From: Hyphomicrobiales bacterium
GTDB lineage: Bacteria > Pseudomonadota > Alphaproteobacteria > Rhizobiales > JANPGK01
NCBI GenBank assembly: GCA_031423895.1
Contig: JANPGK010000004.1
Span: 10,561-74,560 of the forward strand
Length of the DNA: 64,000 nt
Reading direction: 5' to 3'
Shown piece by piece: positions 3,188 through 50,698 of the stretch. A program made the translations under genes and the position numbers. Within the stretch, counting starts at the first letter, position 1, and each line of letters opens with the position of its first letter. Below the pieces are notes generated by a model, which ran no database searches, had not been told where the DNA came from, and worked only from the letters and a program-made list of their open reading frames with translations.

Positions 3188-4567
3188 ATGCGTTTGCTCA
3201 TTATCGGCCAATTAAAAGGTCAACTTTCAACCGCAACCCGCATGGCGCATGATAAAGGCGCCAAGGTCACTCATGCCGATTCTATAGCCATGGGGCTTGA
3301 TGTGCTGCGCTCCGGCAAAGGCGCTGACTTGGTGATGATCGAAACCACTATGGATATTCGTGGGTTTATTGCCGCAATTGAGGCCGAGCGGATTGCCGTG
3401 CCTGTTGTGGCGTGCGGCGTGGAAAACAACGCACGCGCTGCCGTGGCCGCCATTCATGCAGGGGCCAAGGAATATATCCCACTGCCGCCCGATGCCGAGA
3501 TGATTGCCGCTATTTTAGCCGCTGTGGTGCAGGATACAAAAGCATTAATTGTGGCCGATACTGCCATGGAAGCGGTAGTGAAATTGGCCGATCAGATCGC
3601 CCGATCCGACGCGTCTGTGCTCATCACAGGGGAATCGGGCACAGGTAAAGAGGTGGTGGCACGCCATATTCACAGCAAATCGGCGCGCAAGGATGGTGCA
3701 TTTATTGCAGTGAACTGCGCCGCTATTCCTGAGCACTTGTTGGAATCGGAGCTGTTTGGCCACGAAAAAGGTGCGTTCACAGGGGCTGTGGCGCGGCGTT
3801 TGGGCAAGTTCGAAGAAGCCAATGGTGGCACGCTGCTGCTCGATGAGGTTTCGGAAATGGACATTCGCCTGCAGGCCAAATTGCTGCGTGCTATTCAAGA
3901 GCGGGTGATCGACCGCGTGGGTGGCGGCAAGCCCGTGCCCGTGAATATTCGTATTGTTGCCACATCCAACCGTAATATGATGGATTCGGTGAAAGCGGGC
4001 ACCTTCCGCGAGGATTTATTTTATCGCCTCAATGTGGTGAATTTGCGCTTGCCCGCACTGCGTGAGCGCCCGAAAGATATTCCCGCGCTTGCCCAGCATT
4101 TCTCCAAAAAATATGCAGAACTCAATGGCTTAGCGCTGCGCCCCATTTCGCGTGAGGCGCTCAACCAATTGCACACCCTCTCATGGCCAGGCAATGTGCG
4201 CGAGCTGGAAAATATGATCCACCGTGCGGTGTTGCTCAGCACAGGGGATGAAATCGGCGCCGATGCTATTCGTACGCCAGAAGGCCAGCGCGTGGACCAA
4301 CAATGGATTGGCCATACCATTCCTAGCACCGCAACCGATGCGGCCATGCGCGCCGAAGCCATCACCCGCAATTTGGTGGGGCAAACCGTGGCCGATGTGG
4401 AACGCCAGCTGATTTTGGATACGCTTGGCCATTGCTTTGGCAATCGCACCCATGCGGCCAATATTTTGGGCATTTCCATTCGCACCTTGCGCAATAAATT
4501 GCATGAATATACCGCTGCAGGCTTTCAAATTGTCCCTACTAATGAACAAAGGGCGCAATATGCGTGA
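3188..4567 (+). CDS. flbD: Sigma-54-dependent flagellar transcriptional activator FlbD (degenerate receiver, AAA+ domain, Fis-type HTH)
   Basis: Walker A GESGTGKE, the GAFTGA sigma-54 contact motif, and a C-terminal HTH ([20 protein letters not shown]). It is the last gene of the fliF-fliG-fliH-fliN cluster, as in Caulobacter. Confidence 0.85.
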
Positions 4568-4577
4568 TGCACTTAAG

Positions 4578-4760
4578 GCTCCCCACTTGTGGGGGAGCTG
4601 GCGAGCGTAGCGAGACTAAGGGGGGTAAGAAACGTTTTGCGAAGCAAATGAAACGATCCAGTGAATCGTTTCAAGTTTCGAACGCCCGTAGCGATGCGAA
4701 GGGCAGGGAAAGCAAAACAAGAAAACCCCTCCCCCTAACCCCCTCCCACAAGGGGAGAAG
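4578..4760. repeat. Composite family-B repeat (B1 hairpin module, spacer, B2 module), copy 1, intergenic between flbD and flhA
   Basis: The B1 module is GCTCCCCACTTGTGGGGGAGCTG..CTAAGGGGGGTAAG. The B2 module is AAAACCCCTCCCCCTAACCCCCTCCCACAAGGGGAG. The same modules recur at 38326, 47214 and 49339. The spacer holds further hairpins (GAAACGAT-N7-ATCGTTTC). Confidence 0.8.
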
Positions 4761-4778: not shown

Positions 4779-6911
4779 ATGAGCAACACCACAAAAACAT
4801 TCCCCAAACTCGCCGTACCAGGGTTTTCCTTTGGCGATTTATTGGGCATGTTCAAGCGCTCCGACGTTGGCTTCGCCATCGGCATTTTGTTCATTATTAT
4901 GGTGCTCATCGCGCCGATCCCCGCGTGGATGCTCGATTTGCTGCTCGCTACCTCTATCATCATGTCGATTTTGATTTTGATGACCTCGCTGTTCATCCAA
5001 AATCCGCTGGAATTTTCATCATTCCCCACAGTTTTGCTGGTCGCCACCATGTTCAGGCTTTCGCTCAACTTAGCGTCCACGCGGCTCATCCTCTCACATG
5101 GACATGAGGGTACTGCGGCTGCGGGTGCGGTGATCGAGGCCTTTGGCCATTTTGTGATGGGCGGCAATTTTGTGATCGGTGTGGTGGTGTTCACCATCTT
5201 GATTGTGGTGAACTTTGTGGTGATCACCAAAGGTTCGGGCCGCATTGCCGAGGTAGCTGCACGCTTCAGCTTAGATGCCATGCCGGGCAAGCAAATGGCG
5301 ATTGATGCCGATTTATCCGCAGGGTTGATTGAGCAAGATGAAGCCCGCAAACGCCGCAAAGAGCTGGAAGACGAAAGTGCCTTTTTTGGTGCGATGGATG
5401 GTGCCAGCAAATTTGTGCGCGGCGATGCGATTGCAGGGTTGATCATTACGGGAATTAACGTGGTGGGCGGAATTATCATTGGTGTTTTGCAGCAAGATAT
5501 GGAATTGGCCACCGCCGCCAGCACATTCACTATTCTCACCGTGGGTGATGGCTTGGTGTCGCAAATTCCTGGGCTGATTGTGTCCATCGCAGCTGGTTTG
5601 TTGGTGTCCAAAGGCGGCGTTTCAGGCGCGGCTGATAAAGCGCTAATGAAGCAATTCTCGCATTATCCAAAAGCCCTTGGTTTGTCTTCTGGCGTCATGT
5701 TGTTGATCGCCCTTTTGCCTGGGATGCCTATGTTGCCATTTTTATTCCTAGGTGGCGGGGCAGGGGCCATTGCTTATTGGCTCGATAAAGAAAACAAGCG
5801 CGCCGTGATCAATACAGCGGCGACAAAAGCCAAAGCGGAAGTGGTGGAGAAAGCCGCCCCTGCAGATGAGCCTATTGGCCAAAGCCTGAAAATGGATGAG
5901 ATCAAGGTGGAAGTGGGCCAAGCCCTCATTCAAATGATCAATAGCAAAGTGGGCGGTGGTGTGGGCGAACGCCTGACCGATCAAATCAAGGCCCTGCGCC
6001 GCCAATTGGCCATTGATATGGGCATTATCATGCCATCGGTGCGGGTGCTGGATAATATGATGCTGGATTCCAACGCCTATGTGATCAAAGTGAAAGAAGT
6101 CGACGCGGGCAGCGGCCGCATTTATCCCAATCAATATATGGTGATGAACCCAAACGGCGGCCCTGTCGATATTCCGGGCATCAACACGCTCGAGCCAACC
6201 TTTGGCCTGCCCGCCACATGGATTGAGAGCGAGCACCACCAAGACGCGCAAATTAAAGGCTACACCGTGGTGGATTGCGCCACTGTACTGTCTACCCATC
6301 TCACTGAAGTGATCAAAAATAACGTCGCCGAGCTAATTTCCTATGCCGATGTGCAGGCGCTGCTCAAAGAATTGCCCAAAGACCAACAAAAATTGGTGGA
6401 AGATATTGTGCCCGCGCAAATCACTGTATCAGGCATTCAAAAAATTCTGCAAATGCTGCTCAGCGAGCGGATTTCCATTCGCGACCTCTCGAGCATTTTG
6501 GAAAGCATTGCCGACGCCGTGAGCATGACCCGCAACCCAACACTCATCACCGAACATGTGCGGATGCGGTTGGCACGGCAAATTTGTGCCGCCAATCAAA
6601 ACCATACAGGCGTGCTGCCCATCATTACGCTATCTCCGCATTGGGAACATGAAATTGCGGAAAGCTTGATTGGTAGCGGCGAGGAAAAACAGCTCGCTAT
6701 AGCCCCCAGCAAATTGCACGAGCTGATGAACGGTATTCGCGAGCGCTTTGAAGACGCAGCCCGCATTGGGGAGTTGCCCGTGTTGCTCACCTCACCCTCC
6801 GCGCGCCCCCACATGCGTGCACTTGTTGACCGCTTCCGCCCACAAACCACGGTGATGAGCCAAAACGAAGTGCACCCGCGCGCGAAGCTCAAAACCGTTG
6901 GTGCGGTGTAG
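4779..6911 (+). CDS. flhA: Flagellar type III export protein FlhA
   Basis: 710-aa ORF with an N-terminal multi-TM region, the conserved FHIPEP block (RIAEVAARFSLDAMPGKQMAIDADL) and a C-terminal cytoplasmic domain. Confidence 0.95.
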   Translation: MSNTTKTFPKLAVPGFSFGDLLGMFKRSDVGFAIGILFIIMVLIAPIPAWMLDLLLATSIIMSILILMTSLFIQNPLEFSSFPTVLLVATMFRLSLNLASTRLILSHGHEGTAAAGAVIEAFGHFVMGGNFVIGVVVFTILIVVNFVVITKGSGRIAEVAARFSLDAMPGKQMAIDADLSAGLIEQDEARKRRKELEDESAFFGAMDGASKFVRGDAIAGLIITGINVVGGIIIGVLQQDMELATAASTFTILTVGDGLVSQIPGLIVSIAAGLLVSKGGVSGAADKALMKQFSHYPKALGLSSGVMLLIALLPGMPMLPFLFLGGGAGAIAYWLDKENKRAVINTAATKAKAEVVEKAAPADEPIGQSLKMDEIKVEVGQALIQMINSKVGGGVGERLTDQIKALRRQLAIDMGIIMPSVRVLDNMMLDSNAYVIKVKEVDAGSGRIYPNQYMVMNPNGGPVDIPGINTLEPTFGLPATWIESEHHQDAQIKGYTVVDCATVLSTHLTEVIKNNVAELISYADVQALLKELPKDQQKLVEDIVPAQITVSGIQKILQMLLSERISIRDLSSILESIADAVSMTRNPTLITEHVRMRLARQICAANQNHTGVLPIITLSPHWEHEIAESLIGSGEEKQLAIAPSKLHELMNGIRERFEDAARIGELPVLLTSPSARPHMRALVDRFRPQTTVMSQNEVHPRAKLKTVGAV

Positions 6912-20042: not shown

Positions 20043-20132
20043 ATCCCCTTGCATCCCTTTGCATTAACTGTATATATTCATATAATCTTTACTTGAGATG
20101 GCTATTCTCATGTGATGGGCGCGGGGAGACGC

Positions 20133-21395
20133 ATGCGGTTTAGGTCGGTAAAATATAGCATTTCAGCTGTTGCACTTGCGGCGGCACTGTCTGGATGTGC
20201 TGAAAATAATGCGGATCGTAAGGCCAATGCACCCATTTCTGCCGCCACTGTTAAATTAATGGAAGATCATGGTACCAGCCCCGCCGCCCCTGTGTTGATG
20301 CGGGTGGTGAAGGCGGATTCTAAGCTAGAAGTGTGGAAGAAATCCGCTGCCACCGGCAAATATGCCCTTTTGAAATCCTATGAAATTTGCAAATGGTCGG
20401 GTGATTTGGGTCCCAAAAAAACTGAGGGTGACCGCCAAGCGCCAGAGGGGTTTTATAATATCACCCCTGCGCAGATGAACCCAAATTCAAGCTTTTACCT
20501 GTCATTCAACACGGGCTTCCCCAATGCCTATGACAAATCGCGCGGTTATTCGGGTTCGCATTTGATGGTGCATGGGGATTGCTCTTCGCGCGGCTGCTAT
20601 GCGATGAGTGATGAAAACATCGCCGAAATTTATGCGATTGCGCGGGAATCGTTCCGTGGCGGGCAAAAATCCTTCCAATTGCAGGCGCTGCCGTTCAAAA
20701 TGAACGCCAAAAACATGTTTAAATTCCGCAATAGCACCAATTATGCCTTCTGGCAGAATATCAAAGAGGGTGTGGATCAGTTCGAAGTGAGCGGGCTGGA
20801 GCCAAAAGTGGACGTGTGCAGCAAAAAATATGTGTTCAACGCACAGGGCGTGAGCGGGCTGGATCCGTCAGGCCCATGCCCATCCTATAGCATTCCGCAG
20901 GACATTGCCGCCGCTGTAAGTGTGCGCAAATCGCAAGAACATGCCGAATTGCAAGACTTAATGGCGCAGGAATTGCATAAAAAATCGTCTCCAAAATTAG
21001 CCAGCCTATTGGGTGTACATACGCCTTCCAAGCATGGCGATGTTGACCACGCCGTATTGGCAAAATTGGCCACCAAGGAAAGCGCGCGCGCCTATTTGCC
21101 CAATTCATCGCCTGAAGCGGTTTCATTGCTGGCGCTGCGCCATGAGGAATTGCCCGATGATGTGGTGACAACCGCCTCAATTTCAACGCCAATCAATACG
21201 CCTGCTTTGAAATCAACAAGTTCTAAAGTATCGGCGGTGAAAGCCGTGGCGCCCGCTTCACAAAAGCCTGTTACCAAATCGCAAGACATTCGCGCGTCTC
21301 GCACCGATGATGCGGCAACACGCGCCCAAACGGCCTCGTTGCTGGGCGGCATTTCGTTTTCGGGTGTAAGTGTGCCAATGGGCAACGGGCAATAA
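20133..21395 (+). CDS. YafK-like L,D-transpeptidase-family lipoprotein with a long low-complexity C-terminus
   Basis: Start ATG 20133 has GGAG upstream, followed by a lipobox (AAALSGC). The catalytic-like region is GDRQAPEGFY...HLMVHGDCSSRGCYAMSD. The last ~150 aa are Ser/Ala/Pro-rich. Confidence 0.7.
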   Translation: MRFRSVKYSISAVALAAALSGCAENNADRKANAPISAATVKLMEDHGTSPAAPVLMRVVKADSKLEVWKKSAATGKYALLKSYEICKWSGDLGPKKTEGDRQAPEGFYNITPAQMNPNSSFYLSFNTGFPNAYDKSRGYSGSHLMVHGDCSSRGCYAMSDENIAEIYAIARESFRGGQKSFQLQALPFKMNAKNMFKFRNSTNYAFWQNIKEGVDQFEVSGLEPKVDVCSKKYVFNAQGVSGLDPSGPCPSYSIPQDIAAAVSVRKSQEHAELQDLMAQELHKKSSPKLASLLGVHTPSKHGDVDHAVLAKLATKESARAYLPNSSPEAVSLLALRHEELPDDVVTTASISTPINTPALKSTSSKVSAVKAVAPASQKPVTKSQDIRASRTDDAATRAQTASLLGGISFSGVSVPMGNGQ

Positions 21396-21654: not shown

Positions 21655-22059
21655 TCATAATACGCGATCGGTAACCTTATGCTGCTTTAAGTTTGCAGAT
21701 GCGTTTTCCGATTTTTTCTCATAGGCGCGGCGAGCCAGCTCTGTTTGTGATGGGTTTTGCAATACGGTTTTGCCGTCTTCATCAAGCTCGCGATACACGA
21801 TCACTGCAGTTTCAGGCGCGAACACAAAGCCTTGCATGCGCTTGGTTTCAACATCCTTGGCAATTTGCTGTTGTGCCCGCTGATTGGTGTCTTTCGCATT
21901 TTGGTGTGCATTATTTTGAGCATCATTGCCAGTGCGTGCTTGTAGGGCCGCTTCCACGCGTGTGGTGTTATGCCCCTGTGCGCTGGCAATTGCTGTTCCA
22001 TTGGCCTGTGCACTCGCAATTGGCGAAATGGGTGTGTGTGTGACTGCGCCTATATCCAT
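21655..22059 (-). CDS. FlaG-like flagellar protein (putative)
   Basis: 134-aa ORF downstream of flgL. The C-terminal segment (FVFAPETAVIVYRELDEDGKTVLQNPSQTELARRAY) resembles the FlaG signature. Similarity is weak. Confidence 0.45.
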   Translation of the reverse strand: MDIGAVTHTPISPIASAQANGTAIASAQGHNTTRVEAALQARTGNDAQNNAHQNAKDTNQRAQQQIAKDVETKRMQGFVFAPETAVIVYRELDEDGKTVLQNPSQTELARRAYEKKSENASANLKQHKVTDRVL

Positions 22060-31157: not shown

Positions 31158-31183
31158 GTGAGTCTTCATTCTCAATAATCGTT

Positions 31184-31265
31184 GTTATCCTGAGGCATCG
31201 CCGAAGGATCTCTTGCCGCCTCAGGCTCCGTTCAGGGAGATCCTTCACCTGCGGTTCAGAATGAC
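31184..31265. repeat. Family-A palindromic repeat, copy 2 (intergenic between mlaD and the RND gene)
   Basis: Sequence GTTATCCTGAGGCATCGCCGAAGGATCTC...GGGAGATCCTTCAC...TTCAGAATGAC. Degenerate extra terminus-like motifs flank it (TCATTCTCA at 31167, CTCAGGATAGC at 31275). Confidence 0.75.
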
Positions 31266-31290
31266 ATGAAAGTTCTCAGGATAGCTGCGA

Positions 31291-37833: not shown

Positions 37834-40800
37834 TCACGTAATTGTGTTGAGGGGGATGGATTCGATGTGCCCTGAATGAGTCCATACAATTCGCGCTTCA
37901 ATGGGGTGTGGCGTGGGCAGTGTGTGCAGCAATAATTGCGCATATAGCGCCAATTGTGCGGCATATTGGGGGGCTATCCCGCCCGTATAGGCTTCAGTTT
38001 TAAAGTCGATGATCACATGGGCTGTGGGCGTGATGGCCAGCAGATCAATACGGCCAGAAATCAATTGTTGAGTGCCATTAACGAGCAATTCTCCTAAAAT
38101 AGGTAGCTCGGCATATCGTTGCGGCGCATTCCACACATCGGCCAATGCGGGCAGGGCAGCGGTACGGCGCACTTCAGTGATGATACCCTGCGGCGCGCCT
38201 GCATGTGCGTGTGGGTCAGTTTTGGTGATATAGGCCACCAATTGCGCATCATCGGGCAGGTTGGGCACCAATTCGAGCAATTTGTGGATGATGGTACCAC
38301 GCAAGGCTGGGTTTTTGATAGACAGGCTCCCCACTTGTGGGGGAGCTGCTGAGTGTAACGAAGCTGAGGGGGGTATTCTTTCTTCATATTTAGATACGTT
38401 ACCCCCCTCAGTCACGCCCAACAAAAAATTGGGCGCGCCAGCTCCCCCACAAGTGGGGAGCATAAGTAAAGTAGCCGCTTCACGTACGCTTATGCTCGAT
38501 GGCAAAATAATGCTGTGCAAGGCCGCGGGGGGGGGCAGTTGCGCATCACACTCAGCGGCAGATATGGGCAATTGCGCGGTGGGCACAGTGAGGGGCGCAG
38601 TTGTGGTGCGCAAGCGTTTGAAGCTGCCGTGAGGCGTTTCGATCACCTCATGCGTGCCACCCCATGCCTGCACTGCGGCGTCTATTGCGGTGTACCAAGC
38701 GGTAGGCATTGCGATGTCGATGGTGTTTTTTTCCAGTGCATTGGCTTGCTTCTGCCCTGCAGCACCAAAAATAAACACTCTGTCGCGCGCGCGGGTGAGT
38801 GCCACATAGAGCAGCCGCATGGTTTCAGCATATTCTGCGGTGTTGTGCGCGTCTTTTGCCGTGGTGAAGGCGGGCGGCGCAGCGTGTTTATGCACGGTTA
38901 AAATTGGGGTGTTGCACTGCGTAAACAAAATTTTAGGCGCTTTTTGCTGGCGATAATCAAAGCAGCTGTCGGCCAATATCACCACGGGCGCTTCCAGCCC
39001 TTTGGCATTGTGCACGGTCAGAATGCGCACGGCGGTGCTGGCTTCGCTCATTTCGCGCTTTAAAATATGCGATGTAGTGCGGATCCACTGGGTGAAGCTG
39101 AACAGATCGGGCACATTTTGTTCCTCAAATTTTAGGATCAAGCCTAAAAATTCATCGAGAATTTCATGCACATCGGTGCCCATGCGTGTAGCAAACGCCA
39201 CACGCCCATTGGTGTTGCTGAGCATATGCATGAAAAATTCATAGGGTCGCGTGGTGAGCGCCAAGGCTTGCAAATGGTGCAATTGTGCTAATGCAGCGCC
39301 CCAATGTGGCTGCTCATGTGCGCGCGCCTCAAGCGCTTGCAACAACGTGCCGCTGCGCTGCGGCGCAATCGCAAGGATGTCGTCTTCATTGAGGCCCAAT
39401 ATTGGCGATTTCAGCGCGCAAGCCAGTTGCAAATCATCCTGCGGCAGCAGCACACAATCGGCCAACGCCAGCAGATCCTGCACGGCAATATTGTCGGTGA
39501 GGGTCAGCCGATCTGCACCGCCAACCGGGATGCCAGCATCGCGCAGTGCTTTCAGCAGCGTCTCAAATATGCCCTTACGCGCGCGCACCAATATTAAAAT
39601 ATCGCCTGCGGTGATGCGACGCGGGGCCCCGTTTTTGCCCTCCACCACATGAGGCGCGGTGAGTAGGTCTTGGATGGTATAAATAATTTGCTGCACCATT
39701 TTATGAATGGCATTGCGGGGCTGCTGCGGCGCCGTGGCGGCCTCCCATGTGAGTGTAATTTCGTGCTTGGTGTCGGGCAGGCACAGCGGCCACACATCCA
39801 CACAGCCAAAACTGCTGCGGCGCTGGGTTTCATGGATCACGGGTGTGGCATCGGTGGTGAGCTGCTGCGCACGCGGGCGCGGGGCAAACACACCATCCAC
39901 AAGCGCCAACACATCGGGAGTGGTGCGGAATGAAATTTGCAGCGGCTCTTCATGCCATTCCAGCTGCGCATCGGTAATTTTATGAGCAAATGTGGCCTTC
40001 ATATGGGCAAATCGCTCTGGCGCTGCGCCTTGAAAACGGTAAATTGATTGTTTCTCATCCCCCACCACAAACACAGTGCGGGTTTTAGCGCGGCCCGCAT
40101 CGCCCACAAAAAACTCACTCGAAAGTTGCCAGATGATGTCCCATTGCGCATGGCTGGTGTCTTGGGCTTCGTCCACAAGAATGTGATCGATCCCCCCATC
40201 GAGTTTGTAATGCACAAAGGCGGCATCGGCACGCAGCAATAAATTGCGGGTTTTGAGCACCAAATCGTCGAAATCGAGCATGCGTTGCGCGGTTTTGGCG
40301 GCTTGATAGTGTTTCATCACCTCAATGGCAACCGTAATGGCACTGAGGCTGGCCTCAAAGGCGCGGAAATTATACACATGGGTGCGCAGTTCCAACAATT
40401 GGGCGATGCAGGTCTCATAAAACAGGGCATGTTCAGGGAATTGTGTCACAATGTCCTTGGTGGGGGATCGTTTTTTCAGCAGCTCGCCTGATTGCGTTTC
40501 CACCAATTTCATCAAACCCGCAAACCGCGTGTTGAACGACGATGCGGCCAGGCTTTCCCGCAGATATGTGGCAATTTTGGTGTCGTGATCCTTGCCCGTT
40601 TCAAAAATTTGGCATAGCCAGTGCACCATTTTTGGATTTGTCAGCGGAATATCGCGCAGCTGTTTTGCCAGCGTTTCAAGGGTTTGCGTGGGCGGCACAT
40701 CTAGCGTGGCCCGTAGCGCCAATTCAAGCGATTGCGTGGTGTGGTTTAACATGAAGCTGAGTAGCGCATCGCGTTTAGAAAGCAGCCCTTGCAGGTGCAT

Positions 40801-41376
40801 TTCTAGCTGCGCACTGCCCAAAATACTGTGCAAACGCTTTAAATCTGCATGAAATGGCGAGCCAATTTGGCCCGCGCTGCGATAGAATTTTTGGAAAGCG
40901 CCCGCCCATAATGTTTGTATTTGGGGTTCATCTAGCAGTGTGAAACTTGTGGGCACAGGGGCTTCAAACGGAAATTGCTGCAGCACACGCTCGCAAAATG
41001 CATGAAGCGTTTGAATTTTCAAACCGCCAGGCGTTTCTAGCGCTGTGGCAAATAATCTGCGGGCATGGCGCAATTGGCGCGAGCTGGCAGGCGCATTGGT
41101 TAGGGTTTCAATGGCAATTTTCAACGCGGCATCATCTAAATTGACCCAAATTTTGAGGGTATCAAACACGCGTGCGGCCATTTCAGCTGCAGCGGCGCGG
41201 GTGAAGGTGAGGCACAGAATTTTTTCAGGAGGTGTGCCTGCCAATAGTAAGCGGATCACCCGCTGCGTGAGCACGTGCGTTTTGCCCGAGCCTGCATTGG
41301 CGGCCACCCACGCGCTGGCGTTTGTATGCGTGATCCGCGCGATTTTTTGGGCGTGGCTGCTCAAGGGGTTATTCAT
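37834..41376 (-). CDS. addA: Double-strand break repair helicase-nuclease AddA
   Basis: UvrD-type helicase motifs (AANAGSGKTHVLTQR, VDEAQDTS, ..) and a C-terminal PD-(D/E)XK nuclease region. I placed the start at ATG 41376, overlapping the addB stop by 8 nt. The longer ORF-track start at 41532 would run 160 nt into addB. Confidence 0.9.
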   Translation of the reverse strand: MNNPLSSHAQKIARITHTNASAWVAANAGSGKTHVLTQRVIRLLLAGTPPEKILCLTFTRAAAAEMAARVFDTLKIWVNLDDAALKIAIETLTNAPASSRQLRHARRLFATALETPGGLKIQTLHAFCERVLQQFPFEAPVPTSFTLLDEPQIQTLWAGAFQKFYRSAGQIGSPFHADLKRLHSILGSAQLEMHLQGLLSKRDALLSFMLNHTTQSLELALRATLDVPPTQTLETLAKQLRDIPLTNPKMVHWLCQIFETGKDHDTKIATYLRESLAASSFNTRFAGLMKLVETQSGELLKKRSPTKDIVTQFPEHALFYETCIAQLLELRTHVYNFRAFEASLSAITVAIEVMKHYQAAKTAQRMLDFDDLVLKTRNLLLRADAAFVHYKLDGGIDHILVDEAQDTSHAQWDIIWQLSSEFFVGDAGRAKTRTVFVVGDEKQSIYRFQGAAPERFAHMKATFAHKITDAQLEWHEEPLQISFRTTPDVLALVDGVFAPRPRAQQLTTDATPVIHETQRRSSFGCVDVWPLCLPDTKHEITLTWEAATAPQQPRNAIHKMVQQIIYTIQDLLTAPHVVEGKNGAPRRITAGDILILVRARKGIFETLLKALRDAGIPVGGADRLTLTDNIAVQDLLALADCVLLPQDDLQLACALKSPILGLNEDDILAIAPQRSGTLLQALEARAHEQPHWGAALAQLHHLQALALTTRPYEFFMHMLSNTNGRVAFATRMGTDVHEILDEFLGLILKFEEQNVPDLFSFTQWIRTTSHILKREMSEASTAVRILTVHNAKGLEAPVVILADSCFDYRQQKAPKILFTQCNTPILTVHKHAAPPAFTTAKDAHNTAEYAETMRLLYVALTRARDRVFIFGAAGQKQANALEKNTIDIAMPTAWYTAIDAAVQAWGGTHEVIETPHGSFKRLRTTTAPLTVPTAQLPISAAECDAQLPPPAALHSIILPSSISVREAATLLMLPTCGGAGAPNFLLGVTEGGNVSKYEERIPPSASLHSAAPPQVGSLSIKNPALRGTIIHKLLELVPNLPDDAQLVAYITKTDPHAHAGAPQGIITEVRRTAALPALADVWNAPQRYAELPILGELLVNGTQQLISGRIDLLAITPTAHVIIDFKTEAYTGGIAPQYAAQLALYAQLLLHTLPTPHPIEARIVWTHSGHIESIPLNTIT
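38326..38461. repeat. Inverted pair of family-B1 modules, located inside the addA coding sequence
   Basis: GCTCCCCACTTGTGGGGGAGCTG..CTGAGGGGGGTATTC, a 19-nt spacer, then the reverse-complement module GTTACCCCCCTCAG..GCTCCCCCACAAGTGGGGAGC. The AddA frame stays open across it. Confidence 0.8.
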
Positions 41377-44300
41377 CTTCGCCGCCTTCATCTTCCTCGG
41401 CCAGCACACCCCATTCGGCAATGCGCGCCAAATGGTCGTAATCGGTGTAGCTCGCGATTTTCCCGCCATATGGTTTGACATAAAACGGGTGGGTTGGGGT
41501 GCACATGGCCTGCAGCGCCACATGCACGCCATCGAGAATATTGGTGCGCATTTGCGCTAAGGCCTCGCCTTTGCCCATGGGCTGCGATGCTTTTAGTTGC
41601 GTGAAATTATCGGTGAATTTGATGTATTCCAGTGCATGTATGGAAGTGAGTGTGCCGTTTTTCTCAAAATTTTGGGCATGTGCCATTTCCCCCAGTAGCA
41701 CCAATTGTGGATAAAGCCCCGCATTCACTAGTTTTGTGGCGGGCACAACCCCTGTTTTAAAATCGCTTATCACAATGCCATCGCTGCGCTGTTCCACGCG
41801 GTCGGCCCGGCCATGAATGGTGAATTTCTCCCCCATAATATCCCACTGCATGCGATACGACACTTCGCAGCGTACTTTATGCGTATGCTGGCGGCGAGCC
41901 TGTTCAAACGCAATGATGCCATCGACCACGCCATGTAATTGCAGCCGCCATAAAATCCGTTCTTTATCTGGCAAAACGCTGGTGTGGGTTTCAATCTCAG
42001 TCAATACGCTGTTGTGCAGCGCCTGTGTGTCGTCGCTCCACTGTGTGGCCGCCAGCTCAACAATTGTGTGGATGAGGGCCCCGCGAATGCGCGCATCGGG
42101 CAATTGGCCAATGGGTTCAAGAGGCTTCAAGCCCAACACATATTCGGCATAAATGGCATAAGGGTTGTGTAGCAGGGTTTCAATTTTGGTGACAGAAAGC
42201 GTTTTAGGCCGCAATGCCACAGCAGGGCAAGGGGTTGGTGCGGCAATGGGCGCAAAATTATGCGTGGCGTTGTGCGCGCGCACCTGTGCCAGCACTGCAT
42301 TGCCACGGCTGCGCCACGGTTCAAAGCTATGTGTGCCCATCACCGCCGAAATGCGCTGCAAAAACCGCGATGGCAGTGTTGGTGCGCCGCCCTCGCGTAC
42401 CGATCGCGTGAGAATAATGTGGTTTTGCCCCATAAATTGTGCAAAATCATGCGCTGAAAGCGCAATGCGCCGCTCTGGCATGGGCAAACCAATGGCACTG
42501 CGGAGTGCTCGCCCCAGCCACACATCGGGCATATTGGCTGGCGGCCACATACCTTCATTGAGCCCACCCAAAATCACCGTGTCGAATGTGTGCAAACGCG
42601 CTTCCAACGCGCCCATCACCACAATGCGGCTGTTGTGCAGGGGGGGCGGTAATGTGGGCGCCATGTTCAAAATTTGGGTGAGAATGGCGGGGTATGCCGC
42701 GAATGGGATTAAAAATTGCGTGGCTTGGCCAGTATGCGCATCGTGAATGGCTTGCAACACTGTGGTGTGAGCGGTGTCGGCATCATAGTTTAAAACTTGG
42801 CATGCTGTCGCGCCAAGTTGAAGACACGCTTCGCGGTTCGCTATCGCTCCTTCCAAATTTTGAGAAAATTTGGGGATATCTTCATCCTGTACAACGGGCA
42901 CGAGCGCGGCAAAAATTTGGGCAAATTGCTCATTGTAGGTGGCAAAAGGTTGGTGCGGATTATCGGCAGTTTGCAAGGCCAAAAATGGTGCAATTGCCGC
43001 CAAATAGCCTTCTAAAACCGCCTGCGCGTTGTGCCAATCCTCTAAGGTGAGTGATTTTTGCGCGTGGGTCAGCTGATGCGGCTTTGCACCTTCGCAGTGA
43101 GCATTTTGCCATGTTTCAAAATTATGAGCAAGCGCCGCATTCCAATCGCCAGCAGGGGCAATGCCGCGAAATAGCGCGCATTCCAGCGCGGTAACAGCTG
43201 TTTTTAGATCCAAAACGCCTTCAACCTGCACCATAGGGTGACGCAAAAATGCCAGTGCGGCTGCGGGAGATTGTGGCGCGGCTAGCGCATCAAGCAACAG
43301 GCGGGCGGCACGCCCTGGCATGGTGTGCAACAATGGCAACCCGCCAGAATCGGGCACATCAACTCCAAATGCCTGCAAATGCGCACACACGCGCCGCGCT
43401 AGGGTGCGGTTTGGCGTGATCAGTGCCGCAGTTTCATGAGGTGTGGCGGCTGTTAGGCGTAATTGCAGCGCAATGCTCAGCGCTTCCTCTTCCTCATGTG
43501 CAGCCTCTAAAAGCGTGACATGCGCGGTGGCGTTCATCAATTCTGCATCGCATTGCTGCACGCGCCATGAATGCCATTCATCGGTGGTGCTGGCGGGCTG
43601 CAAGGCATAAGACACAATGGTTTCGAGCAGCGGTGGCGGGGTTATACGCCCTAAAATCGGCACATCGGCAGGGTGGGCAATATGCAGAGTAGTGAGCAGC
43701 CGCTTGAGGTGAATTTGCGGGTGAGTTTCGGCCTGCCCAGCAGCGCCAATGGCCGCCCAAGCGGTTACGCTCAGCTGCGTGTCAAGCCCCGGAATGATGA
43801 GCGTGCCATATGGGCTGCGGGCAATCGCGGCCAATAGCTCCGCAGTGGCAGGCGTTGAGCCAGTGGAGCCCGCCGCGATGACGCGGCCAAATTGTCCCGC
43901 CTCAATGCGCTGCGCCATGGCATGGATGGCTTCATCCCAGGCCACAATTGGGTCTTGCAGGCTATGGTCCTGCAAAAATTGCGGCCATTGCTGTAGTACT
44001 ATGTTCAAAAAACCGAGGTTGAGCTCGTGGCTGCCCAAAAATTCGGTGGGAATCATGTCTGCAATTGCGTGCGCACTCACATGCTCAAGCGTAAGCTGGT
44101 CAAGCGTATTGGCCAAATCTTGCGCCAGCGCAACACATTCAGCATGGGAAATCTGTATAAAAATTGGGTCGTTTGGGTTGTGCCATTTTGGTGTGTGGCC
44201 TGCATTCACCGCCGCATATACCGCCTGTTTCCATTGCAAAATTAAGCGTGCCAGCACCCATACGCGCTGGGTGGGTGTAACCGTCGTTTCTGATATATCT

Positions 44301-44668
44301 TCATGTTCCAGCCCAATTTCACCCACATCCCGCACGGGAATGATGCGTGGCAAAATTAGGGCTTGCGTACCAGCTTGCCGCAATAATTCCAGCTCAAAAT
44401 TTTTGCATGCACGCCGAGTGGGGAAAAATATGGTGGTATTGGCGAGTGCGAATGGGCTTATGTCATCCTGAGGCTGCGCCGAAGGATCTCCCAGAATGTG
44501 AGCACAATCGGAAGGAGATCCTTCACTCCCGTCTTCGCTACGCTTCGCCGAGGCAAGTCGTTCAGGATGACAGCTGCTGTTGGTTTGCCCACCCAACACA
44601 AACTGTGCCAATGTTTCAAAAAACGGCCGCGACGCGGGGATGGTGTAGATGTTGGGTGCGTGAGGCAT
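41369..44668 (-). CDS. addB: Double-strand break repair protein AddB (alphaproteobacterial type)
   Basis: About 1100-aa ORF upstream of and overlapping addA. The N-terminus is MPHAPNIYTIPASRPFFETLAQ...FFPTRRA and there is a C-terminal PD-(D/E)XK-like region. Start ATG 44668 (ORF-track start 44719 lies inside repeat C2). Confidence 0.9.
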   Translation of the reverse strand: MPHAPNIYTIPASRPFFETLAQFVLGGQTNSSCHPERLASAKRSEDGSEGSPSDCAHILGDPSAQPQDDISPFALANTTIFFPTRRACKNFELELLRQAGTQALILPRIIPVRDVGEIGLEHEDISETTVTPTQRVWVLARLILQWKQAVYAAVNAGHTPKWHNPNDPIFIQISHAECVALAQDLANTLDQLTLEHVSAHAIADMIPTEFLGSHELNLGFLNIVLQQWPQFLQDHSLQDPIVAWDEAIHAMAQRIEAGQFGRVIAAGSTGSTPATAELLAAIARSPYGTLIIPGLDTQLSVTAWAAIGAAGQAETHPQIHLKRLLTTLHIAHPADVPILGRITPPPLLETIVSYALQPASTTDEWHSWRVQQCDAELMNATAHVTLLEAAHEEEEALSIALQLRLTAATPHETAALITPNRTLARRVCAHLQAFGVDVPDSGGLPLLHTMPGRAARLLLDALAAPQSPAAALAFLRHPMVQVEGVLDLKTAVTALECALFRGIAPAGDWNAALAHNFETWQNAHCEGAKPHQLTHAQKSLTLEDWHNAQAVLEGYLAAIAPFLALQTADNPHQPFATYNEQFAQIFAALVPVVQDEDIPKFSQNLEGAIANREACLQLGATACQVLNYDADTAHTTVLQAIHDAHTGQATQFLIPFAAYPAILTQILNMAPTLPPPLHNSRIVVMGALEARLHTFDTVILGGLNEGMWPPANMPDVWLGRALRSAIGLPMPERRIALSAHDFAQFMGQNHIILTRSVREGGAPTLPSRFLQRISAVMGTHSFEPWRSRGNAVLAQVRAHNATHNFAPIAAPTPCPAVALRPKTLSVTKIETLLHNPYAIYAEYVLGLKPLEPIGQLPDARIRGALIHTIVELAATQWSDDTQALHNSVLTEIETHTSVLPDKERILWRLQLHGVVDGIIAFEQARRQHTHKVRCEVSYRMQWDIMGEKFTIHGRADRVEQRSDGIVISDFKTGVVPATKLVNAGLYPQLVLLGEMAHAQNFEKNGTLTSIHALEYIKFTDNFTQLKASQPMGKGEALAQMRTNILDGVHVALQAMCTPTHPFYVKPYGGKIASYTDYDHLARIAEWGVLAEEDEGGEDE
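42792..42873. repeat. Family-D structured repeat, copy D2, inside the addB coding sequence
   Basis: Hairpin 1 is AAAACTTGG-N12-CCAAGTT. The core is ACGCTTCGCGGTTCGCTATCGCTCC. Hairpin 2 is CCAAATTTT-GAG-AAAATTTGG. Confidence 0.7.
44462..44571. repeat. Family-A palindromic repeat, copy 3, inside the addB coding sequence (N-terminal region)
   Basis: GTCATCCTGAGGCTGCGCCGAAGGATCTC...GGAGATCCTTCAC...TTCAGGATGAC, with perfect 10-bp terminal inverted repeats. Confidence 0.75.
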
Positions 44669-44697
44669 GTGGTTTTCACGTCCATAATACGTCATGG

Positions 44698-44786
44698 TCG
44701 GGCTAGTAGACCCGACCATCTTCTTTTAAAGTAGATCCTCGGCCATCCGCTTTCGCCCGAAAGCGGGCTACAGCGAGACAAGCGCC
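44698..44786. repeat. Family-C repeat, copy 2 (inverted relative to copy 1), immediately upstream of addB
   Basis: The reverse complement reads GTCATCCTCAGG...GAGGATCTACTTTAAA..GATGGTCGGGTCTACTAGCCCGAC, matching 12736..12803 apart from a larger internal hairpin segment. Confidence 0.7.
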
Positions 44787-46521: not shown

Positions 46522-47298
46522 TCATGTAATTTTGTCAAATCTCAAATAACAACTCCTTCGCCCCTCGCGCCGTGCTTTGGCTTCATAGCGGGTTTGCACC
46601 CAGCCCTCATAAGGTGTGAGGAAATCAGCGGCGGTGTGCGCTGGCCATGTGAACGCGGGGTGTTCGCGGATGTGCTGCAAGGTCCACGCCGCATAGCTAT
46701 CAATATCGGTGGCACAGCGAAATTGGCCGCCCAGCACCAAAATACGGGCGAATTCATTCAGCGCATCGATGGAGACAAAGCGCCGCTTCCAATGGCGTTT
46801 TTTGTGCCATGGGTCGGGGTAAAACAGGTGCACATGCGAGAATTGCGCATCTGGCAGGGTACGCAGCAAAAAATGTGCATCGTCATTATAAAAGCGGATG
46901 TTGGGCAGGTGTTCATCCAAGCAATCGCGCACAGCGGCGGCATATCCATTCAAAAACGGCTCCACGCCGATGAAGCCCACAGTGGGGTTATTGCGGGCGC
47001 GGTTAAGCAAGTGCTCGCCCGAACCAAAGCCAATTTCCAGCTCATAGCGTTCGAATGGTTGGCCAAATAGCTGTGATAGATCGAGCATTTGCCCATGCGT
47101 AAACGTAATATCTACAGCGCCTTGCTGGGCGATGGCGTCTTTTTTGCCAAGCGATAGCGCCTTGCCTTTGCAGCGGCCATAAAACTTGCGGATGGTTTCG
47201 GGTGGGGGTGAAGATTCTCCCCTCCCCTTGCGGGAGGGGGTAGGGGGAGGGGTTTTCTCATCAGCATTCGCTGAGTATATGTTTGGAATATTATCCAT
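46522..47298 (-). CDS. trmB: tRNA (guanine-N7)-methyltransferase TrmB with a repeat-encoded N-terminal extension
   Basis: Core motifs: EIGFGSGEHL, FYPDPWHKKRHWKRRF. The first ~38 aa (..EKTPPPTPSRKGRGESSPPP..) are encoded by the family-B2 repeat module. Confidence 0.85.
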   Translation of the reverse strand: MDNIPNIYSANADEKTPPPTPSRKGRGESSPPPETIRKFYGRCKGKALSLGKKDAIAQQGAVDITFTHGQMLDLSQLFGQPFERYELEIGFGSGEHLLNRARNNPTVGFIGVEPFLNGYAAAVRDCLDEHLPNIRFYNDDAHFLLRTLPDAQFSHVHLFYPDPWHKKRHWKRRFVSIDALNEFARILVLGGQFRCATDIDSYAAWTLQHIREHPAFTWPAHTAADFLTPYEGWVQTRYEAKARREGRRSCYLRFDKIT

Positions 47299-47354
47299 TA
47301 AGAATACCCCCCTCAGTCACGCTATGCGTGACAGCTCCCCCGCAGGTGGGGAGC
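47214..47354. repeat. Composite family-B repeat (B2, spacer, B1 in reverse orientation), copy 3, straddling the trmB start codon
   Basis: B2 spans 47214..47257 (TCTCCCCTCCCCTTGCGGGAGGGGGTAGGGGGAGGGGTTTT). B1 spans 47300..47354 (AAGAATACCCCCCTCAG..GCTCCCCCGCAGGTGGGGAGC). The trmB ATG (47298) lies in the spacer between them. Confidence 0.8.
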
Positions 47355-47361
47355 CGTTTTC

Positions 47362-48237
47362 TTACCCCAACATCGCCTTCAACGCAGTGCGCAAATCATC
47401 CGCCAGCTCTGGCCTGTCCAGCCCATAGGCCACATTGCCAGTGAGGAAGCCGATTTTGGAGCCGCAGTCGTAGGTTTTTCCGTCGAATTCCAACCCATAG
47501 AAGGATTGCTGCGCCAATAAGCTGATCATCGCATCTGTCAGCTGAATTTCGCCACCTGCGCCGCGCTGCCCTTTGGCCAATAGGTCAAAAATTTGTGGCT
47601 GTAAAATATAGCGCCCCGTGATGGTGTAATTCGATGGCGCAGTGCCTTTGGCGGGCTTTTCCACCATGGCATTGATCTCAAATCCGTTGGCTTTTTTGGC
47701 GCCCGCCCCCACCACACCATATTGGTGGAGTTGATCTGTTGGGGTGGTTTCCACCGCCAGCACATTGCCGCCCGTGGCGTTATAGACATCCATCATTTGT
47801 GCAAGGCAGGATTTTTTGGCTTTCACCAACACATCAGGCAGCAGCACGGCGAAGGGCTCGTTGCCCACAATGTCGCGCGCGCACCACACCGCATGCCCCA
47901 AACCAAGCGGCGCTTGCTGGCGGGTGAAGCTGGCTTGACCTGCGGGGATCATGTCGGCCAGAAGCTGCTCTAATTCACGCGTTTTGCCACGAGTTTTGAG
48001 GGTGTCTTCCAGCTCATATTGATGGTCGAAATGGTCTTCAATCACATGCTTAGAGCGGCCAGTCACAAAAATAAAATGCTCGATGCCAGCTTCACGCGCT
48101 TCATCCACCACCCATTGCACCAGGGGACGATCGACCACCGTGAGCATTTCTTTGGGCATAGATTTGGTGGCGGGCAAAAAGCGAGTGCCAAGACCTGCAA
48201 CGGGAAAAATAGCTTTACGTACTTTAGGAGATGACAT
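47362..48237 (-). CDS. galU: UTP--glucose-1-phosphate uridylyltransferase
   Basis: N-terminus KAIFPVAGLGTRFLPATKSMPKEML and family-wide similarity. Confidence 0.9.
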   Translation of the reverse strand: MSSPKVRKAIFPVAGLGTRFLPATKSMPKEMLTVVDRPLVQWVVDEAREAGIEHFIFVTGRSKHVIEDHFDHQYELEDTLKTRGKTRELEQLLADMIPAGQASFTRQQAPLGLGHAVWCARDIVGNEPFAVLLPDVLVKAKKSCLAQMMDVYNATGGNVLAVETTPTDQLHQYGVVGAGAKKANGFEINAMVEKPAKGTAPSNYTITGRYILQPQIFDLLAKGQRGAGGEIQLTDAMISLLAQQSFYGLEFDGKTYDCGSKIGFLTGNVAYGLDRPELADDLRTALKAMLG

Positions 48238-48317
48238 TTGGCGCCTTTCTTAACGATTCATTTGAGCCTTGTATGGCAAAGCTGATATCAACACAATATG
48301 GCGAATTTGAGGGCAAT

Positions 48318-49310
48318 ATGACAATTTTGGTAACAGGCGGGGCTGGTTATATTGGCAGCCACATGGCGCACGCCTTGGTGGATGCCGGCGAAGATGTTGT
48401 AGTGTTGGATAATCTCACCACGGGGTTTCGCAACTGCATTCCGCGCACGGCCAAATTCATTAAGGGCAATGTGGGCGATGCCAAGCTGCTGGAGAAATTA
48501 TTCGCCGCGCATAATATTGAGGCGATTGTGCACTTTGCGGCCAGCATTGTGGTGCCAGAATCGGTGGCCGATCCGCTGAAATATTATGGCAATAACACCG
48601 CAAACACCCGCACGTTGATTGAAGCCGCCGTGAACGCAGGTGTGAAACACATCATTTTCTCATCCACCGCCGCTGTATATGGCAATGCTGAAGTTCAGCC
48701 TGTCACCGAGCATAGCCCCACGCTACCAGAATCGCCCTATGGGCGCTCTAAGTTAATGTCGGAATGGATGCTGGCCGATGCGGCCGCCGCGCATGGGTTT
48801 ACCTACACCGTGCTGCGCTATTTCAATGTGGCGGGGGCTGACCCTCGCGGCCGAGTGGGGCAATCGACACCCGAAGCCACGCATTTGATTAAAGTGGCGT
48901 GTCAAGCCGCGCTGGGGCAACGCCCAAATTTAAGCGTATTTGGCAGTGATTATCCCACATCAGATGGCACATGTGTGCGCGATTATATTCATGTGAGTGA
49001 TTTGATTGCGGCGCATGTGGCGGCGCTCAAACGCCTGCGCACTGGCGCGCCATCGGTAACAGTGAATTGCGGTTATGGGCGCGGCTTTAGCGTGATGGAG
49101 GTGATTAAAACCGTGAAAAAGGTGACAAAGATAGACTTCCCAGTGGTGATGAGCCCACGCCGCGCCGGCGACCCCGCCAGTATTGTGGCCTCAGCTACCA
49201 CCGCGCGTGAAGTTTTGGGATGGGTGCCGCAGTTTGATGATTTGAAAACCATCGTGAAGCATGCCTATAAATGGGAAGCTAAACTGGCTAAGCGGAGGGC
49301 GCAGGGATGA
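48318..49310 (+). CDS. galE: UDP-glucose 4-epimerase
   Basis: Start ATG 48318 (GAGG upstream) gives MTILVTGGAGYIGSH. The YxxxK motif (YGRSK) is present. The stop overlaps the next ORF as ATGA. Confidence 0.9.
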   Translation: MTILVTGGAGYIGSHMAHALVDAGEDVVVLDNLTTGFRNCIPRTAKFIKGNVGDAKLLEKLFAAHNIEAIVHFAASIVVPESVADPLKYYGNNTANTRTLIEAAVNAGVKHIIFSSTAAVYGNAEVQPVTEHSPTLPESPYGRSKLMSEWMLADAAAAHGFTYTVLRYFNVAGADPRGRVGQSTPEATHLIKVACQAALGQRPNLSVFGSDYPTSDGTCVRDYIHVSDLIAAHVAALKRLRTGAPSVTVNCGYGRGFSVMEVIKTVKKVTKIDFPVVMSPRRAGDPASIVASATTAREVLGWVPQFDDLKTIVKHAYKWEAKLAKRRAQG

Positions 49311-50698
49311 TTTTAAGAAATATGTGCCTTTACTTTACCTCTCCCCTTGTGGGAGAGGGTGGCGCGAAGCGCCGGGTGAGGGGTTTTCTTTCTAGCGCCG
49401 TGAAGAATACCCCCCTCAGTCTCGCAAGCGCTCGACAGCTCCCCCACAAGTGGGGAGCATTAAGTATATGCTTATTTATTCTATGTATTTTTATTTTCCC
49501 CGCCCACGCGCAACAAAGTGGCGACCCGCAATTTCAGGCTTTTGTTCAGCAAAAAATCTGGCCAAAAGCCCAAGCCGCAGGCATTGATCAAGCCACTTTC
49601 GCGGCGGCGTTTGAGGATGTGACCTCGCCCGACCGCTCTATTTTGGGCACGGCCAAAAAGCAGCCCGAATTTGCCAGCACAGTGGGCAATTATGTGGGCA
49701 AACGCGTTTCGCCTGCGCGCATTCAAAATGGGGCAAAAAAGCTGGAAGATGGCCGCATTCACAACGCGTTGAGCCAAATCGGCAAAAAATATAATGTGGA
49801 TCCATTTGTTGTGCTCTCCATTTGGGGTATTGAATCCTCCTATGGCGCGGCGCTCAACCCCGAAACGCTGAAAAACGTGTTTCGCTCGATGGCCACTTTG
49901 GCGTATGCAGACAGTGCGCGACGCGAGTTTGGCTTTGAACAAACCATTGCAGCGCTGAAAATTGTGAAGCGTGGCTATGCTGAAGTGCATGAAATGCGCG
50001 GCTCGTGGGCGGGCGCAATGGGGCACACGCAATTCATACCCACAAGTTATTTGGTGTATGCGCAAGATTTTGACGGCGATGGACACCGCGATATTTGGAA
50101 CAATATTGGCGATGCATTGGCCTCAACCGCCGCACATTTGGCCACATCCGAAGGCAATGCCCCTACATGGATTGACGAAGAGCCATGGGGCGTGGAAGTG
50201 GTGGTGCCGCAGGGCTTTAATTATGCCAATGCGTATGAAAATGGTGGATTTGAGGAAAAATCGATCACAGCATGGCAACAGCTTGGCATTCGTGCGGCTA
50301 GCGGCGGCCTGCCAAACTCACGCGGCGAGGCTACGCTCTATGTGCCATCGGGCGTAAATGGCCCTGCATTTTTGCTATACCCGAATTTTAAGGTGATTAA
50401 GCGCTATAATTTCTCAAATGCCTATGCGTTGGCAGTGGGGTTGCTCGCCGACAGGTTGCGCGGTGAAAATGTGCCAGTACGATCATGGCCAAGCGATGAC
50501 GACCAACTCACGCGCATTGCCGATGTGAAACTGCTGCAAAGCCGCCTCACACAATTGGGCCATTATAATGGCAAAATTGATGGGTTCGTGGGGCCCAAGG
50601 TCTATGCCGCCACCCATGCGTTTCAAGCGCGTGCGGGCATTTCCCCTGCTGATGGGCTGCCTACGCAAGAAGTCTTGGAAGCGTTGCGCGATAAATAG
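49307..50698 (+). CDS. Lytic murein transglycosylase (MltB/SLT_2-like) with a C-terminal peptidoglycan-binding domain; start codon uncertain
   Basis: Catalytic region ..LSIWGIESSYG..., WAGAMGHTQFIPTSY. The C-terminal PG_binding_1-like repeat is LQSRLTQLGHYNGKIDGFVGPKVYAATHAFQ. The signal peptide (..LSICLFILCIFIFPAHA/QQ) follows the repeat-encoded residues. An in-frame GTG at 49400 is an alternative start. Confidence 0.8.
   Translation: MILRNMCLYFTSPLVGEGGAKRRVRGFLSSAVKNTPLSLASARQLPHKWGALSICLFILCIFIFPAHAQQSGDPQFQAFVQQKIWPKAQAAGIDQATFAAAFEDVTSPDRSILGTAKKQPEFASTVGNYVGKRVSPARIQNGAKKLEDGRIHNALSQIGKKYNVDPFVVLSIWGIESSYGAALNPETLKNVFRSMATLAYADSARREFGFEQTIAALKIVKRGYAEVHEMRGSWAGAMGHTQFIPTSYLVYAQDFDGDGHRDIWNNIGDALASTAAHLATSEGNAPTWIDEEPWGVEVVVPQGFNYANAYENGGFEEKSITAWQQLGIRAASGGLPNSRGEATLYVPSGVNGPAFLLYPNFKVIKRYNFSNAYALAVGLLADRLRGENVPVRSWPSDDDQLTRIADVKLLQSRLTQLGHYNGKIDGFVGPKVYAATHAFQARAGISPADGLPTQEVLEALRDK
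49339..49458. repeat. Composite family-B repeat (B2 plus B1, reverse orientation), copy 4, inside the 5' end of the transglycosylase ORF
   Basis: CTCTCCCCTTGTGGGAGAGGGTGGCGCGAAGCGCCGGGTGAGGGGTTTTC, a 13-nt spacer, then GAAGAATACCCCCCTCAG..GCTCCCCCACAAGTGGGGAGC. Confidence 0.8.

Follow-up and report, generated by a model that had tools for sequence, protein, structure and literature searches.

Palindromic repeats that lie in frame within bacterial genes are well established, and the portions of the literature drawn on here (PMC10969869, PMC3184786) describe them for the Rickettsia palindromic elements (RPE; Ogata et al. 2000), ERIC, BOX, and others. A separate body of work concerns the tether of RecB, in which randomised sequence and an extension of 9 or 10 residues are tolerated, while an extension of 19–38 residues lowers, without abolishing, control by Chi (PMC6326792). 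Both bear on a 64,000-nt stretch of DNA from a Hyphomicrobiales bacterium (contig JANPGK010000004.1, positions 10,561 to 74,560; hereafter the window), in which the gene addA is open across a 136-bp repeat composed of two inverted copies of a module designated B1. This feature is probably a non-autonomous REPIN/MITE-like palindromic repeat that is tolerated in the flexible tether of AddA, and not an adaptation to the activity of AddA on DNA ends.

The 136-bp repeat and the AddA linker

Three parts make up the B1 module: hairpin 1, which is rich in GC; hairpin 2, which is variable; and a CTGAGGGGGG box. In addA, two such modules face one another across a central spacer, as follows:

38326..38461: convergent dimer of two B1 modules, 136 bp; residues 1024-1069 of the open reading frame (ORF), or 972-1017 of the deposited protein P0001, read on the minus strand
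38326..38346, plus strand: left module hairpin 1, GCTCCCCAC TT GTGGGGGAGC, with one bulged G
38347..38363, plus strand: left module hairpin 2, degenerate, TGCTGAGTGTAACGAAG
38364..38375, plus strand: left module G-box, CTGAGGGGGGTA, pairing partner of the C-box in the right module
38376..38399, no strand: central spacer, 24 nt, AT-rich and non-palindromic
38400..38411, minus strand: right module box, TACCCCCCTCAG on the plus strand
38412..38440, minus strand: hairpin 2 of the right module in a long form, its 9-bp stem (CGCGCCCAA / TTGGGCGTG) closing a T-rich loop
38441..38461, minus strand: right module hairpin 1, identical to left hairpin 1

According to a repeat finder, the outer arms (38326-38348 and 38439-38461; 23 nt each) and the inner arms (38364-38375 and 38400-38411, CTGAGGGGGGTA and TACCCCCCTCAG; 12 nt each) are both 100% complementary, which, together with the five occurrences of hairpin 1 described below, bears out the original prediction of two inverted B1 modules at this site. 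The same prediction spoke of a long perfect palindrome, and this does not hold: perfectly complementary arms cover only 70 of the 136 nt (2x23 + 2x12), what separates outer from inner arms is unrelated in sequence on the two sides (15 nt on the left vs 27 nt on the right), and the 24-nt centre is non-palindromic. The end motif proposed for the modules is correct for the left one, which ends ..GGGGGGTATTC, and incorrect for the right one, which reads ..GGGGGGTAACG. The dimer as a whole is 64% G+C, with a predicted fold of -95 kcal/mol as RNA (z = -11) and -49 kcal/mol as single-stranded DNA (z = -9.9). Between the 23-nt arms lie 90 nt (38349-38438), a multiple of three, and when they are turned round the addA register still contains no stop (LPTCGGAAECNEAEGGILSSYLDTLPPSVTPNKKLGAPAPPQVGS); an inversion across the arms would thus not interrupt the ORF.

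Chimeric joins classically arise at palindromes, and the original prediction had allowed for an artefact of assembly; an inverted chimera at the hairpin, formed during assembly or amplification, would be one form of this. Such an origin is extremely improbable: a second assembly, the Logan contig of run SRR20217181, is identical in DNA sequence over the dimer, although both assemblies may come from the same reads. Moreover, the reading frame is kept into the conserved domain that follows, the two modules differ internally—and hence are not a simple fold-back copy—and sister dimers of the same architecture are found elsewhere in the window.

Three features of the gene serve as landmarks for the repeat:

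37834..41532, minus strand: addA, maximal ORF of 1232 codons, open across the repeat
38272..38307, minus strand: conserved RG..H.LL block, ALRGTIIHKLLE, residues 1076-1087, which opens the PD-(D/E)XK nuclease domain
38497..38508, minus strand: ILPS, the likeliest native copy of the [LVI]xPS linker motif, residues 1009-1012

In translation, the minus-strand ORF reads ..LMLPTCGGAGAPNFLLGVTEGGNVSKYEERIPPSASLHSAAPPQVGSLSIKNPALRGTIIHKLLE.. over the repeat, exactly as had been noted, and the peptides that AddA is predicted to contain at this point are ..EAATLLMLPTCGGAGAPNF.. and ..APPQVGSLSIK... The deposited protein (P0001, 1180 aa) starts at 41376 and is the same as the ORF from Met53 on; this start overlaps by 8 nt the 3′ end of addB, which lies directly upstream. 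Identification of the gene as addA, with a nuclease domain following the repeat, likewise stands. The protein contains the Pfam domains UvrD-helicase (PF00580; 6.7e-49), UvrD_C (PF13361; 1.5e-17), and PDDEXK_1 (PF12705), the last of these occupying residues 1074-1213, C-terminal to the insert and in an unchanged frame. An AlphaFold (AF2) model, built with 98 orthologues in the alignment, has a mean predicted local distance difference test (pLDDT) score of 86, with all domains confident, and its best fold matches are B. subtilis AddA (4cei_A, E = 4e-42) and RecB; at the top of the Foldseek list stand 4cei_A, 4cej_A, and 3u44_A, with E of ~1e-42. Helicase domains, nuclease domain, addB neighbour, and AddA-like fold are thus all present.

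Comparison was made with 119 AddA orthologues, none more than 38% identical to the query. The ATPase motifs GSGKT and DEAQD and the nuclease residues D1111, D1124, K1126, Q1141, and Y1145 are invariant columns of this alignment and all are kept in the query, as are 171 of the 193 columns that are at least 95% conserved, catalytic residues included. Because these residues and columns are kept, AddA is, as judged by sequence and predicted structure, an intact full-length helicase-nuclease. Its lineage is isolated: in a search of 5.8 billion proteins, the best non-self matches of AddA and AddB were 31–39% identical over their full length and at most 43% identical over part of it, and the next best AddA is 38% identical. 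The host has a G+C content of ~52% and carries flagellar, RND-efflux, and Mla genes.

Among the orthologues, the region ahead of the RG..H.LL block is a variable linker, within which the proline of the [LVI]xPS motif is invariant (119/119); the query ILPS lies outside the repeat. Hidden Markov model posteriors in the linker were too low to set boundaries, and motif-anchored distances were used instead. The serine of the PS motif and the RG anchor are 65 aa apart in the query, vs 14–38 (median 25) in the orthologues, and removal of the 45–46 repeat-encoded residues brings this distance to 19–20 aa, within the normal range. Wider anchors tell the same story: the query span of 138 residues, where the maximum is 137, falls to 92 once the repeat-encoded residues are taken out, where the median is 102. 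The excess length is confined to the linker, in agreement with the predicted lineage-specific insert of about 45–46 residues between domains, just before the nuclease.

Had orthologues carried the same residues, this would have spoken against an insert. Peptide motifs encoded by hairpin 1 are found in none of the 238 other AddA/AddB orthologues, and a search of 1.84 billion representative proteins with the 46-aa insert peptide gave no genuine relative. Its two matches outside AddA were unrelated tandem-repeat proteins with scores summed over 13 weak stretches, and were discarded as spurious. In the AF2 model, the sole long stretch with pLDDT below 50 (P0001 residues 934-1018) holds the insert (972-1017) and sits between the helicase, which ends at ~923, and the nuclease, which starts at ~1021; the insert is hence predicted to be disordered and to lie in the helicase-nuclease linker.

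The repeat family in the window and in other genomes

Hairpin 1, the 21-nt sequence GCTCCCCACTTGTGGGGGAGC, occurs five times in the window where none is expected (100 shuffles), at 4578, 38326, 38441 (minus), 47334 (minus, with 2 mismatches), and 49438 (minus), while the box occurs three times against 0.05 expected in shuffles. A covariance model of the module, built from 21 modules, finds the five B1 modules of the window at 58–67 bits. It also finds three A-type modules, which follow a plan like that of B1 (hairpin 1, hairpin 2, GAGGGG box); these matches are weak (9.6–21.6 bits, two with E of 0.2–0.8), and the A-type calls rest mainly on position within dimers and on direct similarity to B1. 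The modules of the window pair into four convergent dimers, and the three outside addA are B1/A heterodimers:

4578..4758: B1(+)/A-type(-) dimer, filling the interval from ORF 3188..4567 to ORF 4779..6911
47219..47354: A-type(+)/B1(-) dimer, 136 bp, which begins 7 nt past the stop of ORF 47362..48237(-)
49338..49458: A-type(+)/B1(-) dimer, 121 bp, which begins 27 nt past the stop of ORF 48231..49310(+)

All three start 7–27 nt behind stop codons (4568-4578, 47355-47361, and 49311-49337), the position expected for REP/BIME-like 3′-end structures. The description of these copies as intergenic is clean for 4578; at 47219-47354 and at 49338-49458, the dimer runs into the 5′ end of the downstream ORF when that ORF is taken at its maximal length. 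The dimer at 49338-49458 lies inside the maximal ORF 49307..50698 (+), ahead of an apparent signal peptide (LSICLFILCIFIFPAHA), and no in-frame ATG, GTG, or TTG stands between it and the hydrophobic stretch; this repeat may encode an N-terminal extension, or the gene may have an unusual start. In the case of 47219..47354, the ATG of ORF 46522..47298 (minus) sits in the central spacer, and the A-type module would encode approximately residues 14-30 of the product (EKTPPPTPSRKGRGESS); this repeat may supply the start codon and N terminus.

Scans of genomes and metagenomes found the hairpin-1 pattern at 37 loci from other organisms, at least 16 of them with the whole module, in the form ...TGTC-stem-loop-stem-GAC TGAGGGGG. 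The hosts are Phenylobacterium, Terricaulis, Hyphomonadaceae, Methylobacteriaceae, Hyphomicrobiales, and metagenome-assembled genomes (MAGs); the orders Caulobacterales and Hyphomicrobiales are both represented. Here too, modules often form convergent or divergent pairs, or clusters; convergent dimers of a B1-like and an A-like module are present in a groundwater proteobacterial MAG and on a Hyphomonadaceae chromosome, in the latter case 10 nt past a stop codon (L018 5965-5974). The longest stop-free spans, tried as a test of whether modules lie in ORFs elsewhere, were uninformative because the DNA is high in GC. Searching the literature with sequence strings brought up nothing but irrelevant primers and promoters.

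Hairpin 2 varies in both sequence and length between modules, and its pairing stays: compensatory double changes occur in 6 of 7 pairs, and 88% of cells are paired. The covariation score was reached by none of 500 shuffles, and slid controls collapse. That pairing has been maintained is one argument for a role of the repeat as nucleic acid, by which the mRNA structure of -95 kcal/mol, or a DNA cruciform, would modulate expression of addA; ribosome pausing, RNase processing that uncouples the helicase and nuclease parts, or stalling of replication or transcription might be the route. The extreme stability of the fold and the REP/BIME-like placement of the intergenic sisters behind stop codons point the same way. 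Such a role is nevertheless quite improbable, given that the left hairpin 2 of the addA copy is degenerate, that no promoter- or terminator-like signal was found within the addA dimer, and that compensatory change may stem from templated correction of hairpins, with no selection for an RNA function. Nor does the repeat correspond to an Rfam family: at the gathering threshold there was no match in the window or in eight related loci, and matches with E up to 10 were at chance level only.

Two further repeat families are translated in the neighbouring gene:

41369..44719, minus strand: addB, maximal ORF; deposited protein P0121, 1099 aa
44461..44573: 113-bp palindromic element of a second family in addB, with ends TGTCATCCTGA...TCAGGATGACA, in frame, at about residues 50-87
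~42795..42880: repeat of a third family in addB, with a core ACGCTTCGCGGTTCGCTATCGCTCCT between two variable hairpins, in frame, corresponding to query-only residues 614-636

The AddB segment at about residues 50-87 lies between the conserved IYTIPA..FxxxLA and P.ALA..T...PTRRA blocks and is missing from all 119 orthologues. The 113-bp element has an intergenic sister at 31183-31266 and a related hairpin at 12735-12801. Sisters of the third family are found at 18860-18945, 57160-57250, and 10600-10670, and in these, too, the hairpins differ between copies and are still paired. A sliding 120-nt fold scan for further intragenic palindromes gave only peaks of diffuse GC-rich coding structure in other ORFs, and no discrete elements.

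The original prediction hinted at a special relation between the palindrome and the processing of hairpins and DNA ends by AddA, and this is not supported. The addA element is one ordinary copy of a convergent-dimer repeat that also stands behind unrelated genes, both in the window and in other Alphaproteobacteria; by its own make-up, the B1 module contains no stop in the register used; and two unrelated families are likewise translated in addB. All three clear intragenic in-frame insertions of the window fall in addAB, a locus that accounts for ~12% of the coding DNA. One explanation of such accumulation is that addAB is under relaxed selection and is decaying towards pseudogenes, and of 174 AddB columns with at least 95% conservation, 29 are indeed not matched, several arginine or aspartate residues being among those lost. 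Decay is very unlikely for all that: neither ORF is interrupted in its 1180 or 1099 codons, and AddA retains Walker A/B, the nuclease D..D.K..Q..Y residues, and its 171 conserved columns within a confident AF2 model. A suspected loss of iron–sulphur cysteines in AddB was dismissed, as the orthologues read DYDHLAR as well.

A broader reading starts from the module itself: hairpin 1 and the box are identical, hairpin 2 covaries freely, convergent dimers lie 7–27 nt past stops, and Caulobacterales, Hyphomicrobiales, and the present deep-branching lineage share the module, which has no Rfam family. The module of two hairpins and a G-box might then be an undescribed functional nucleic-acid element of Alphaproteobacteria and more than selfish DNA, or addAB, the operon for processing broken and hairpin-derived DNA ends, might be a favoured sink for palindromic repeats through a mechanistic link. 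Such a reading is unlikely; if true, the clustering in addAB might have arisen, for example, via hairpin-induced breakage and repair-associated capture, or via self-regulation of addAB, and not through linker tolerance alone. A module so widely shared, with a covarying hairpin 2, merits a census, although no new mechanism is indicated.

Two other features of the window lie outside this family. The strongest fold by the 120-nt scan (21541-21660, -68.9 kcal/mol) is a hairpin of ~100 nt with arms at 21555-21574 and 21624-21643, situated between ORFs 20112..21395 and 21655..22059. At 34366-34967 (minus), amid RND-efflux genes, two small overlapping ORFs of 98 and 104 aa match Gp49/HigB-like (weakly) and HI1420-downstream-type families and may constitute a toxin-antitoxin system.

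Proposed insertion into the tether and its tolerance

The sequence of events favoured here is that two modules of ~50–60 nt, convergent around a short spacer, landed in the stretch of addA that codes for the tether. Three circumstances would have let the gene survive. A whole number of codons (46) would have been added; the module is stop-free in the register used; and runs of G, C, and GC would yield a disordered peptide rich in glycine, proline, serine, and alanine, which would do no more than lengthen a tolerant linker. The insert would then be a passenger, as with the RPEs, with AddA remaining a full-length helicase-nuclease.

The data show the anatomy, the family, the open frame, extra length in the linker only, the predicted disorder, and the kept AddA residues; how the element inserted, that it is indeed translated, and that it is neutral are inferences. 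The repeat is open in only one of three registers per orientation, and the register used in addA already contains no stop in the intergenic B1 copies, save one copy with a single stop in forward orientation; therefore no repair after insertion would have been required. The composition of the insert—50% Gly/Pro/Ser/Ala—derives from the G- and C-runs. An intron- or intein-like nature of the element was considered and rejected on the grounds of its insufficient size, the lack of an Rfam match, and the frame, which is broken when exactly 136 nt are removed.

Alternatively, the 46 residues may have been exapted as a functional extension of the tether that alters the reach or speed of the nuclease swing and hence the regulation of the nuclease. 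In RecBCD, tether length and flexibility do govern Chi-dependent behaviour of the nuclease (PMC6326792), and the insert lies exactly in the equivalent linker with a composition half of which is G/P/S/A. Exaptation is distinctly unlikely all the same, since the insert is unconserved outside this single protein and predicted to be disordered, and since its peptide is what the intergenic copies would encode in that register, with no sign of tuning after insertion.

A number of observations weigh against a simple insertion tolerated in the tether. No close relative is available, so there is no empty site and the insertion is not delimited to the base; hairpin-1 scans of genome and metagenome collections, in which an empty addA site was sought, gave only single copies from other taxa. 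The 136 nt are not a multiple of three, and 2 further nucleotides must be part of the event. No direct repeat indicative of a target-site duplication is present at either plausible boundary (flanks ..GATAGACAG / ATAAGTAAAG..), and neither a Y1 transposase nor a RAYT was matched among ten small ORFs, the part of the window examined. In the MAFFT and HMMER alignments, the P-S motif falls not on ILPS but on LPT or PPS, both encoded by the repeat, and the posterior there is low. The ILPS assignment suits the flanking distances better, with a boundary that is not fixable to the residue.

Hairpin 2 is wholly different between copies while hairpin 1 and the box are identical, which simple copy-and-paste would not predict. 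The clustering of repeats in addAB is suggestive, in that pure neutrality would not predict it; it is also a post-hoc observation, with a confounder in the linkers of the two large proteins, which are long and variable. Finally, to go by PMC6326792, lengthening the analogous tether of RecB by 46 aa has a phenotype. Because that tether tolerates change, an extension of 46 aa in AddA is plausibly viable by analogy, and need not be silent.

If the repeat is a passenger of this kind, the phenomenon of selfish palindromic DNA inside genes, known above all from the AT-rich genomes of Rickettsia, also covers GC-rich repeats of REP type in an alphaproteobacterial lineage that has been little sampled. 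The insert likewise provides a natural experiment in how much arbitrary sequence an AddAB/RecBCD-type tether can carry. For annotation, Gly/Pro-rich segments encoded by repeats are not to be taken for lineage-specific domains. Repeats of this type can also mislead alignments, as here, where the repeat mimics the invariant P-S motif of the linker.

Comparison with described tethers and repeats

AddA is only a distant homologue of RecB, and we know of no experiment on the length of the AddA linker. The two systems are alike in that the addA insert occupies the structurally equivalent linker between an SF1 helicase and a PD-(D/E)XK nuclease; they differ in that lengthening of the RecB tether by 19–38 aa reduced Chi-dependent activity (PMC6326792).

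Intragenic MITE-like repeats (ERIC, RU-2/YPAL, BOX, and Correia-type; Delihas 2007 as summarised within PMC3184786) resemble the addA element in being small and non-autonomous, with terminal inverted repeats—here, the perfect 23-nt arms—and in carrying open frames that are fused in frame to ORFs of the host. As far as that summary goes, however, they mostly extend the ends of genes, whereas the addA copy lies in an internal domain linker; it also lacks a target-site duplication, and no related insertion sequence was found in the window.

REPINs and BIMEs (PMC3116915, PMC3337134, PMC3184786) are inverted, GC-rich, imperfect palindromes around a short spacer that form a long hairpin. They occur in many copies, mostly behind genes, and related genomes likewise carry the present module as singlets, doublets, and clusters; two inverted REP-like palindromes with a short spacer is also what the addA dimer comprises. 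REPINs are extragenic by definition, unlike the intragenic addA copy, and are tied to a RAYT, an IS200/IS605-like Y1 transposase whose single-copy gene usually has REPs on its flanks; none was identified among the ten small ORFs of the window. A further difference is that the addA-type module consists of two hairpins with a conserved G-box, and not of a single REP hairpin.

The RPEs share with this family a palindromic repeat of 100–150 bp in multiple copies, intergenic as well as in frame inside unrelated genes, with several families per genome, and an encoded peptide that sits where the fold of the host protein tolerates it. At this locus, the dimer measures 136 bp, there are four dimers in 64 kb, the ORF is open, and the site is compatible with the fold, being the sole long segment with pLDDT below 50. 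The RPEs, in contrast, come from AT-rich Rickettsia, and homology in sequence between RPE-1..10 and an element of 64% G+C with REP-like GC hairpins is unlikely. The addA element is not assigned to any named family; it works like an RPE or a REPIN.

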